Part shown: piece by piece, positions 6,292 through 6,420 of the stretch
How positions within the stretch are numbered: position 1 is the stretch's first letter
Layout of the letters: every line of letters begins with the position of its first letter
Virus record (IMG/VR): IMGVR_UViG_2684622618_000013
Source of the DNA: a virus
Taxonomy: Duplodnaviria; Heunggongvirae; Uroviricota; Caudoviricetes
DNA: 6,464 nucleotides
Direction: 5' to 3' (one strand)
Position numbers and translations under genes: made by a program
Notes under the pieces: model-generated
What the model saw: the letters and a program-made list of their open reading frames with translations, nothing else
The model's database searches: none
Told to the model about the DNA's origin: nothing

Positions 6292-6343
6292 AAATGTTAA
6301 CTGCTGCCTGGTTAACATTTGCTGAAAAAGCCTGTTAACATTT
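6292..6343. repeat. Inverted plus direct repeats built on GTTAACAT (candidate protein-binding sites upstream of terS)
   Basis: aaatgttaac (6292..6301) and gttaacattt (6311..6320) form a perfect 10-bp inverted repeat with a 9-bp spacer. gttaacattt recurs as a direct repeat at 6334..6343, both copies preceded by cct(g). Confidence 0.55.
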
Positions 6344-6360
6344 TTTCCGCACAACAAACT

Positions 6361-6420
6361 GAATAATAAAGATAAAAACCGCAAAAATGCCCGGGCAGCC
6401 AGTTAACATGTTAACTGCCC
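6361..6420 (-). terminator. Putative intrinsic terminator (palindromic hairpin + U-tract) upstream of terS
   Basis: Minus-strand RNA reads GGGCAGUUAACAUGUUAACUGGCUGCCC (contains the perfect 18-bp palindrome cagttaacatgttaactg, plus 6400..6417) followed by GGGCAUUUUUGCGGUUUUUAUCUUUAUUAUU. May terminate an upstream operon; it also carries two more GTTAAC copies. Confidence 0.4.

Follow-up and report, generated by a model that had tools for sequence, protein, structure and literature searches.

When the 6,464 nucleotides of prophage DNA analysed here (the window) were compared with related phages, prophages and satellites, the five copies of the oriented 8-mer ATGTTAAC upstream of terS emerged as a probable cosB-like terminase recognition array at the left packaged end of an HNH-dependent cos phage. 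The comparison drew on the anatomy of the array, the conservation of its sites, the co-variation of the motif with TerS, the persistence of the array in a satellite lacking terS, and the position of the array relative to the published virion ends of a close relative.

In the mechanism that we infer from these comparisons, TerS would bind the proximal inverted pair of copies (+34..+47 from the packaged left end) through its helix-turn-helix domains, and would also bind the three distal copies at +108, +131 and +148, over a T-tract spacer that probably bends or wraps the DNA. TerL and the HNH endonuclease would thereby be set on the conserved cutting site 30-40 bp away (6449-6458) and would make 10-nt 3' cohesive ends there. 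Packaging would then run towards terS and terL.

Repeat array and cutting site

The window belongs to an E. coli O157:H7 lambdoid prophage of the Sakai Sp6 / phage 2851 / BP-4795 type. Positions 5600-6464 were matched with 100 % identity in genomes of E. coli O157:H7, among them EDL933 and Sakai (prophage Sp6), and with 98-100 % identity in the Stx-converting phages 2851, BP-4795, 1717 and Stx2a_WGPS6. The same stretch was matched in 1281 of 5426 complete E. coli genomes, at a median of two places per carrier genome, and the same cos module was found in many Stx1, Stx2a and Stx2c converting phages as well as in co-resident O157:H7 prophages. Every gene of the window is on the minus strand (Table 1). 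In Sp6 and phage 2851, terS is preceded at a distance of about 290 bp (293-bp spacer) by the end of a gene for a 121-aa HNH protein (PF01844). This gives the order HNH, spacer, terS, terL, which is also that of HK97. An HNH gene directly 5' of terS-terL with cos in between is the arrangement of an HNH-associated, HK97-like cos module. The HNH gene itself lies beyond the window end, and the window covers 245 bp of the HNH-terS spacer.

Table 1 Features of the window; positions in the fourth column are counted from the predicted virion left end (+1)
Feature	Window position	Strand	Position from left end	Remarks
Portal-like ORF	412-1785	minus		
Protease/major-capsid fusion	1997-3934	minus		
terL, 553 aa	3998..5659	minus		TerL_ATPase and TerL_nuclease domains
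terS, 187 aa	5656..6219	minus		GTG start at 6219; Pfam Terminase_2
terS Shine-Dalgarno GGGAGGAGG	6222..6230	minus		read from sequence
Site E, GCAAATGTTAAC	6290..6301	plus	+148..+159	other arm of 12-nt inverted repeat
Site D, GCAAATGTTAAC	6311..6322	minus	+127..+138	one arm of 12-nt inverted repeat
Site C, AAATGTTAAC	6334..6343	minus	+106..+115	
T-rich spacer	6344..6399	minus		T-runs ~8-9 bp apart at +62, +71, +79
Proximal element, CAGTTAACATGTTAACTG	6400..6417		+32..+49	18-bp palindrome; two inverted ATGTTAAC half-sites A and B
Cos core block, GGACACCGCGCCCCCTCTCACGCAGAGAAAAAATTCCC	6427..6464	minus		cut off by window end
A6 tract in cos core	6432..6437	minus	+12..+17	
Predicted 10-nt 3' cohesive end, CGCGCCCCCT	6449..6458	minus		by homology to published Lys8385Vzw termini

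The original prediction started from five GTTAAC hexamers at 6296, 6311, 6334, 6402 and 6410, all of which were recovered at exactly these positions, 5' of terS and 73-198 bp upstream of its GTG on the minus strand. By eye, no other copy had been seen in the window at that stage; a sixth is present at 4826-4831 inside terL, and that copy corresponds to the background frequency. In the whole window, six copies were observed against 0.66 expected, and none of 200 shuffles reached this number. The real repeat unit was found to be longer than the hexamer. It is an oriented 8-mer, ATGTTAAC, with GTTAAC as its core, and its five exact copies at 6294-6301 (+), 6311-6318 (-), 6334-6341 (-), 6402-6409 (-) and 6408-6415 (+) all fall within 6292-6417, with no further exact copy in the rest of the window. 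The direct repeat (6311-6320 and 6334-6343) and the 18-bp palindrome could be reproduced exactly as first described. The inverted repeat has the 9-nt gap reported for it, but its arms are 12 nt long instead of 10 (sites D and E in Table 1).

The count was extended to 50 kb of phage 2851, which is 99.8 % identical. This stretch contains 16 GTTAAC hexamers against about 8 expected, five of them in the cluster, and the 11 outside the cluster are at background level (about 8 expected). For ATGTTAAC or its complement, six occurrences were counted in these 50 kb against 1.2 expected, and five of the six are in the cluster. The GTTAAC cluster is real, far above chance and specific to this site, and does not reflect a hexamer that is frequent throughout the element.

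Judging from its phased T-runs, the T-rich spacer between the proximal element and site C is probably intrinsically curved. No IHF consensus was found in 6220-6464 when up to one mismatch was allowed. A second small palindrome, TGCCCGGGCA (6388-6397), adjoins the GTTAAC palindrome; it is variable in close relatives (e.g. TGTCCGGGCA) and absent from the diverged lineages L176 and L177 described below. We also considered a 24-codon hydrophobic ORF, MLTGCPGIFAVFIFIIQFVVRKKC (6335-6409, minus strand), which runs from an ATG in the palindrome to a stop in site C. It is probably not a gene: the frame is open in L176 with a different sequence, is cut to 14 codons in L177 and has a weak ribosome-binding site, and it is probably a by-product of the T-rich strand.

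The cutting site was placed by homology to phage Lys8385Vzw, whose TerS is 96 % identical and whose spacer is near-identical; its sequence had been obtained from induced particles. Its record ends with ...GGACACCGCCCCCCCT and starts with CTCACGCAGAG (record start read as CTCACGCAGAGAAAAAATTCCCGTTTCAGGGCAGTTAACATGTTAAC), and PhageTerm analysis reported cos packaging with 3' cohesive ends and CGCCCCCCCT at the genome end (PMC7946995). Transferred to the window, this published result gives defined cohesive ends with a 10-nt 3' overhang in the HNH-terS spacer, and the virion left end (+1) would be the C at 6448, reading downwards, by homology to this one mapping. Lys8385Vzw was the only phage record found to end in the spacer, all other records being prophage-derived. 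The unrelated IMG/VR contig L011 begins 1 nt from the predicted cut point.

Given a cohesive end at 6449-6458, the array would be located at +32..+157 of the packaged left end and terS at +230. The five ATGTTAAC copies would span +34..+155, that is, repeats beside the nicking site on the first-packaged side, which is the layout of a cosB. In the original prediction, 6292-6420 was a candidate cos or pac recognition region made of short repeats bound by TerS. The comparative evidence agrees with a short-repeat recognition region of this kind, and the span now appears as the flanking, cosB-like part; the cut itself is placed outside the span by homology. The pac option was dropped because PhageTerm assigned Lys8385Vzw to cos packaging with 3' ends and not to permuted headful packaging.

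Conservation of the array and co-variation with TerS

Among 80 close IMG/VR relatives (TerS 89-99 % identical), footprinting found the whole spacer to be near-invariant and was therefore uninformative. In lineages with TerS 70-80 % identical, the spacers are much diverged, and an unbiased k-mer count recovered the same array architecture. The top k-mer of the window, ATGTTAA, is located at +35(-), +40(+), +108(+), +131(+) and +149(-), and that of L177, ATGTTTA, at +35(-), +40(+), +108(+), +132(+) and +150(-). L176 contains six copies of ATGTTAACC, and its palindrome is GGTGGTTAACATGTTAACCACC. The D/E pair of L171 reads ATGTTTAC...GTAAACAT; in both L171 and L177, the two arms of the D/E inverted repeat were altered alike, to ATGTTTAC. 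Site C has the same position and orientation in all long-spacer elements compared (four phage lineages and satellite L255). When five lineages were aligned from +24 to +165, 30 of 38 motif columns were invariant versus 41 of 104 elsewhere (Fisher p 5e-5). The T-runs were also observed at matching spacer positions in L176 and L177, 8-9 bp apart, though the sequence differs. Conservation of the motif upstream of homologous terS genes, a check suggested with the original prediction, is thus seen, with its positions and orientations kept in diverged lineages.

A scan of one genome per species extended the comparison to about 20 Enterobacterales prophages and one of Oceanisphaera, with TerS 33-48 % identical. 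All of them carry the strongly conserved block GGGGGGG...GGACACCGCGCCCCCTCTCACGCACAGAAAAAATTCCCCTCTGGAGGGTGTAAAC|ATGTTAACAG, followed by a short spacer with terS at +40. A GT[A/T]AAC-NN-GTTAAC pair is present at +34..+47, matching the position of the window palindrome. In these short-spacer relatives the second GTTAAC forms terS codons 1-3 (M-L-T), so part of its conservation could be coding. They manage with the proximal pair alone, which counts against the need for a full array; in Oceanisphaera, three GTTAAC copies are found 12-13 bp apart. Its constant distance from the cut, even in distant relatives, marks the proximal pair as an ancient and conserved component of the cos region, and the three distal copies are, in the sequences compared, peculiar to the long-spacer lineage. 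The short-spacer elements L088-L106 and L004 have an extra GTAAACAT (or GTTAAC/GTCAAC) at about -38, beyond the cut, which is degenerate (GAAAAAAAC) in the lineage of the window; this copy may be a terminal-side recognition element.

The cos core is kept near base for base in the Enterobacterales relatives with TerS 33-48 % identical and in three kinds of satellite, and its A6 tract is kept in phages and satellites. The TerS site of HK97 likewise has an essential A-tract (PMC11331095).

TerS was assigned to Pfam Terminase_2 (PF03592, residues 2-57, E-value 4.5e-8). This was the only family reported by the profile search at E <= 0.001, and the P27 type suggested in the original prediction was not recovered. 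In the AlphaFold2 model, the N-terminal domain has a pLDDT of 91-95 and helices at residues 4-14, 19-25, 33-41 and 44-55; residues 1-55 (window 6055-6219) form a predicted helix-turn-helix DNA-binding domain, with helix 33-41 as the predicted recognition helix. The best Foldseek match of this domain was the DNA-binding domain of SF6 G1P (4zc3, with a TM of 0.84 and an rmsd of 1.6 A). Further matches were 2cmp and the helix-turn-helix domains of other small terminases. A sequence search of PDB with TerS gave just weak matches to the SF6 DNA-binding domain, which the fold search confirmed. By analogy with SF6 G1P, whose N-terminal helix-turn-helix domains it resembles, TerS is probably a ring oligomer.

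When the helix was tabulated against the proximal element over all loci collected, the motif was found to vary together with the helix region (Table 2). At the left half-site, Thr32 goes with ATGTTAA and Ser32 with ATGTTTA. The change from T32/V35 to S32/C35 in the helix region accompanies the change from ATGTTAA to ATGTTTA at all copies together. The lineages are related, so this co-variation represents perhaps 3-5 independent changes. Gene conversion among the repeats could add to the concerted pattern.

Table 2 Residues of the TerS helix region and the proximal element found with them
TerS helix region	Loci	Proximal element	Type
KTARVKGSQL	157	AGTTAACATGTTAACTGG	GTTAAC type
KSARSKGSQL	45	T[GA]TAAACATGTTAACAG	GTAAAC-AT-GTTAAC
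KTARSQGSRL	12	TGTT[AG]ACGTGTTAACAG	GTT[AG]AC-GT-GTTAAC
KSARCKGSQL	2	TATAAACATGTTTATA	GTTTA[TC]
DKTARSKGSQL	1	TATTAACATGTTAAC	

Satellites sharing the cutting site

Two kinds of TerS-bearing island were found to keep the cutting block. The first carries P0063, a common TerS homologue of E. coli and Shigella (244 index blocks), on an island of about 9-11 kb with an integrase, small ORFs, a primase/helicase, TerS and a capsid-like protein, and without TerL, HNH or portal. In the second, the TerS homologue P0053 adjoins an AlpA gene. TerS-bearing satellites were seen in L182 (E. coli AATOBA010000003.1, 55090-75578), L168-L170 and L174/L175; all have an integrase, a primase (or AlpA) and a capsid-like protein, and none has TerL, HNH or a portal. 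Both P0063 and P0053 islands retain the block GGACACCGC[GC]CCCC..CTCAT.C..AGAAAA and have AAAAGTTACAC repeats from +33 in place of ATGTTAAC. The short form has two direct copies of AAAAGTTACAC; in the long form, GTTACAC is located at +33, +123, +179 and +192 with an inverted copy at +132.

The satellite TerS is a mosaic. Compared with the TerS of the window, its N-terminal domain is 57-63 % identical and its C-terminal part 62-77 % identical, whereas distant phages of the GTTAAC type show the opposite pattern (N-terminal domain 72-80 %, C-terminal part 33-42 %). The repeat motif therefore follows the TerS DNA-binding domain; in these sequences it does not go with the cutting site, and it does not go with that part of TerS which would be expected to touch TerL. 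Among its GTTACAC repeats, L174 has one phage-type AAAAATGTTAAC near the site C position and a hybrid ATGTTACA (+81 and +97), which may be remnants of a phage array or sites for a helper TerS.

A third satellite-like element, L255 (IMGVR_UViG_2563366903_000013, 11.7 kb), encodes an integrase, Ash, a D5-type primase, SSB, a lambda-E-type capsid protein and a D-type decoration protein. In its array region (10734-10900), which is not followed by a terS, the cutting block is present together with the five ATGTTAAC copies, each placed as in the window. Positions identical to the window amount to 37 of 38 in the motif versus 64 of 104 elsewhere (p 6e-6). An array kept without terS is hard to square with any part in expressing that gene, and is what a packaging signal acting in cis would look like. 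PICIs that share cos-region sequence with their helper have already been noted (PMC10111431), and L255 may be of this kind.

A wider reading, towards which we incline slightly less than against, is a three-way contest over packaging specificity around one shared cutting site, between the phage, satellites that swap TerS and satellites that copy the array. On the phage side, ATGTTAAC would be read by the TerS helix-turn-helix, with Thr or Ser at residue 32 going with A or T at base 6. The first kind of satellite would use a chimeric TerS (new DNA-binding domain, helper-like C-terminus) with AAAAGTTACAC sites and, if the reading is true, would redirect the TerL and HNH of the helper to itself. 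The second kind, without terS, would copy the phage array outright. The setting would be prophages of the Shiga-toxin type, which about one in four complete E. coli genomes carries.

Alternative readings and known systems

Of the other readings considered, the one closest to a TerS recognition array keeps a packaging or architectural role at cos and changes the binder, which would be TerL, HNH, a small phage protein or a host nucleoid protein. The conserved cos core must itself be read by TerL or HNH, and the satellites hold several small ORFs of unassigned function, whose products could in principle be the binders. Yet satellites without TerL or HNH keep the cutting block and swap the motif along with their own TerS DNA-binding domain, variants of the motif go with changes at or within the TerS helix predicted to recognise DNA, and the IHF consensus is absent in and near the array. 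We regard another binder as unlikely. More doubtful still is a neutral origin, by which the copies would be relics of an ancestral terS 5' end (ATG TTA ACx, Met-Leu-Thr), duplicated in tandem so that terS itself came to lie 190 bp further downstream. The idea is suggestive by eye: ATGTTAAC is the terS start in all short-spacer relatives, and site D opens a pseudo-start (MLTRQQLTFAA*) that can be set beside TerS MLTTQKRKFALA. Beyond the 8-mer, however, the similarity of the units to terS 5' ends is not significant (p 0.04-0.36), the 8-mers are perfect while their flanks drifted, and the motif has been lost from the real terS start (GTGCTGAC). In L177 the change affected all five copies together, and the copies were kept by a satellite without terS. 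A duplication origin would be compatible with a present function and may simply be a possible history of the array.

Two readings that place the function in transcription are the least probable, and we give both about the same, very small weight. In one, the palindrome would be an RNA hairpin or intrinsic terminator that tunes late transcription in the HNH-terS interval. T-runs come after the dyad, GGTGGTTAACATGTTAACCACC followed by TTTT in L176 looks canonical, and the outer arms vary by lineage and are yet symmetric. Against this, a scan of 6100-6464 found no terminator (no G+C-rich stem-loop with a T-run), the predicted fold (-16.4 kcal/mol, z = -1.27) was no better than that of shuffled sequence, and the stem in L177 is all A/T; the half-site also recurs as single copies, and the dyad overlaps the terS start codon in short-spacer relatives. 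In the other, which the original prediction had offered as its alternative, the copies would be operator sites of a dimeric regulator or promoter elements for terS. The palindromic and inverted arrangement and the resemblance of TTAACA to a -35 hexamer suggest it, and one promoter-like match exists (TTAACA-18-TAACAT, 9/12, with TG, 6312-6341). This sole match is on the plus strand, antisense to terS and directed towards cos, and is built from sites D and C. In lambdoid phages a single, distant upstream promoter under Q antitermination serves the late genes. L255 retains the array although no gene follows it, and it is TerS, not a regulator, with which the motif co-varies.

The terminase recognition array that we favour resembles several known systems in part. 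As in lambda cosB (R3-I1-R2-R1, gpNu1), short repeats of mixed orientation are located between the nicking site and terS, close to the latter, in the end that is packaged first. Unlike lambda, the TerS here has an SF6-type helix-turn-helix (Terminase_2) and not the winged helix of gpNu1, and phased T-runs stand in place of the IHF consensus, so that the region is not a lambda-type cosB. The overhangs, moreover, are 10-nt 3' and the cut involves an HNH partner gene, and a perfect palindrome, beginning 32 bp from the cut, makes up the proximal element. SPP1 and SF6 G1P share with the window TerS the N-terminal fold (4zc3, 2cmp) and the Pfam family, and G1P binds repeated boxes flanking the cut in bent DNA. 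Those phages, in contrast, package by headful from pac, whereas cohesive ends and an HNH partner are found here, and the box sequences are unrelated.

The order HNH, cos, terS, terL and the 10-nt 3' overhang are shared with HK97 (PMC11331095, PMC9410871). Its TerS binding site is at +15..+29 (PMC11331095), and the putative TerS site here is likewise removed from the cut by a few helical turns in the packaged direction, with an A-tract near the cut. The HK97 site, however, which is the one solved case and speaks against a need for repeats, is a single, non-repeated 15-bp site threaded through the TerS channel, whereas here five oriented 8-mers extend over 125 bp, and Pfam and PDB searches with the window TerS gave no HK97-type match. 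For lambda, the cosB R elements and PICIs with the same cosN and a different cosB have been described (PMC6739421), and the satellites found here similarly keep the cutting site and change the repeats. EcCICFT073-type PICIs with Rpp (PMC6739421) also combine the cosN of the helper with a different cosB and a specificity protein of their own. They differ in that the satellites here carry a whole chimeric TerS and not an Rpp adaptor, their inferred helpers are HNH-type cos phages and not lambda or phi80, and a second satellite type copies the phage array.

A literature search for the motif found no description of a GTTAAC array at cos. The kind of element is ordinary and the cos ends of a relative are published, and the array itself appears to be undescribed. 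No new kind of mechanism is revealed, the logic being that of lambda cosB or the HK97 site, via an SF6-type TerS. The most notable by-product is the satellite swap of TerS and cosB around a shared cutting site. A cis packaging signal together with its reader would help explain the cross-packaging of prophages and satellites by one another's terminases, which bears on the spread of Shiga-toxin genes and islands. The array and TerS would form a compact, testable DNA-protein specificity pair, with an SF6-type TerS in a cos system, and would define a minimal cos cassette for transducible vectors.

Two further observations concern the DNA on either side of the terminase genes. The portal-region ORFs of the window are broken by runs of masked bases (X in translations) at about 208-260 and 515-570, and the portal ORF is shorter than the 2580-bp gene annotated in phage 2851. 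Just past the end of the window and directly 3' of the HNH stop, a poly-G run (L001 4890-4910; L003) varies from 7 to about 13 G among relatives, and in PPompW prophages the IS110-family element ISEc20 is inserted at this run and parts HNH from cos.
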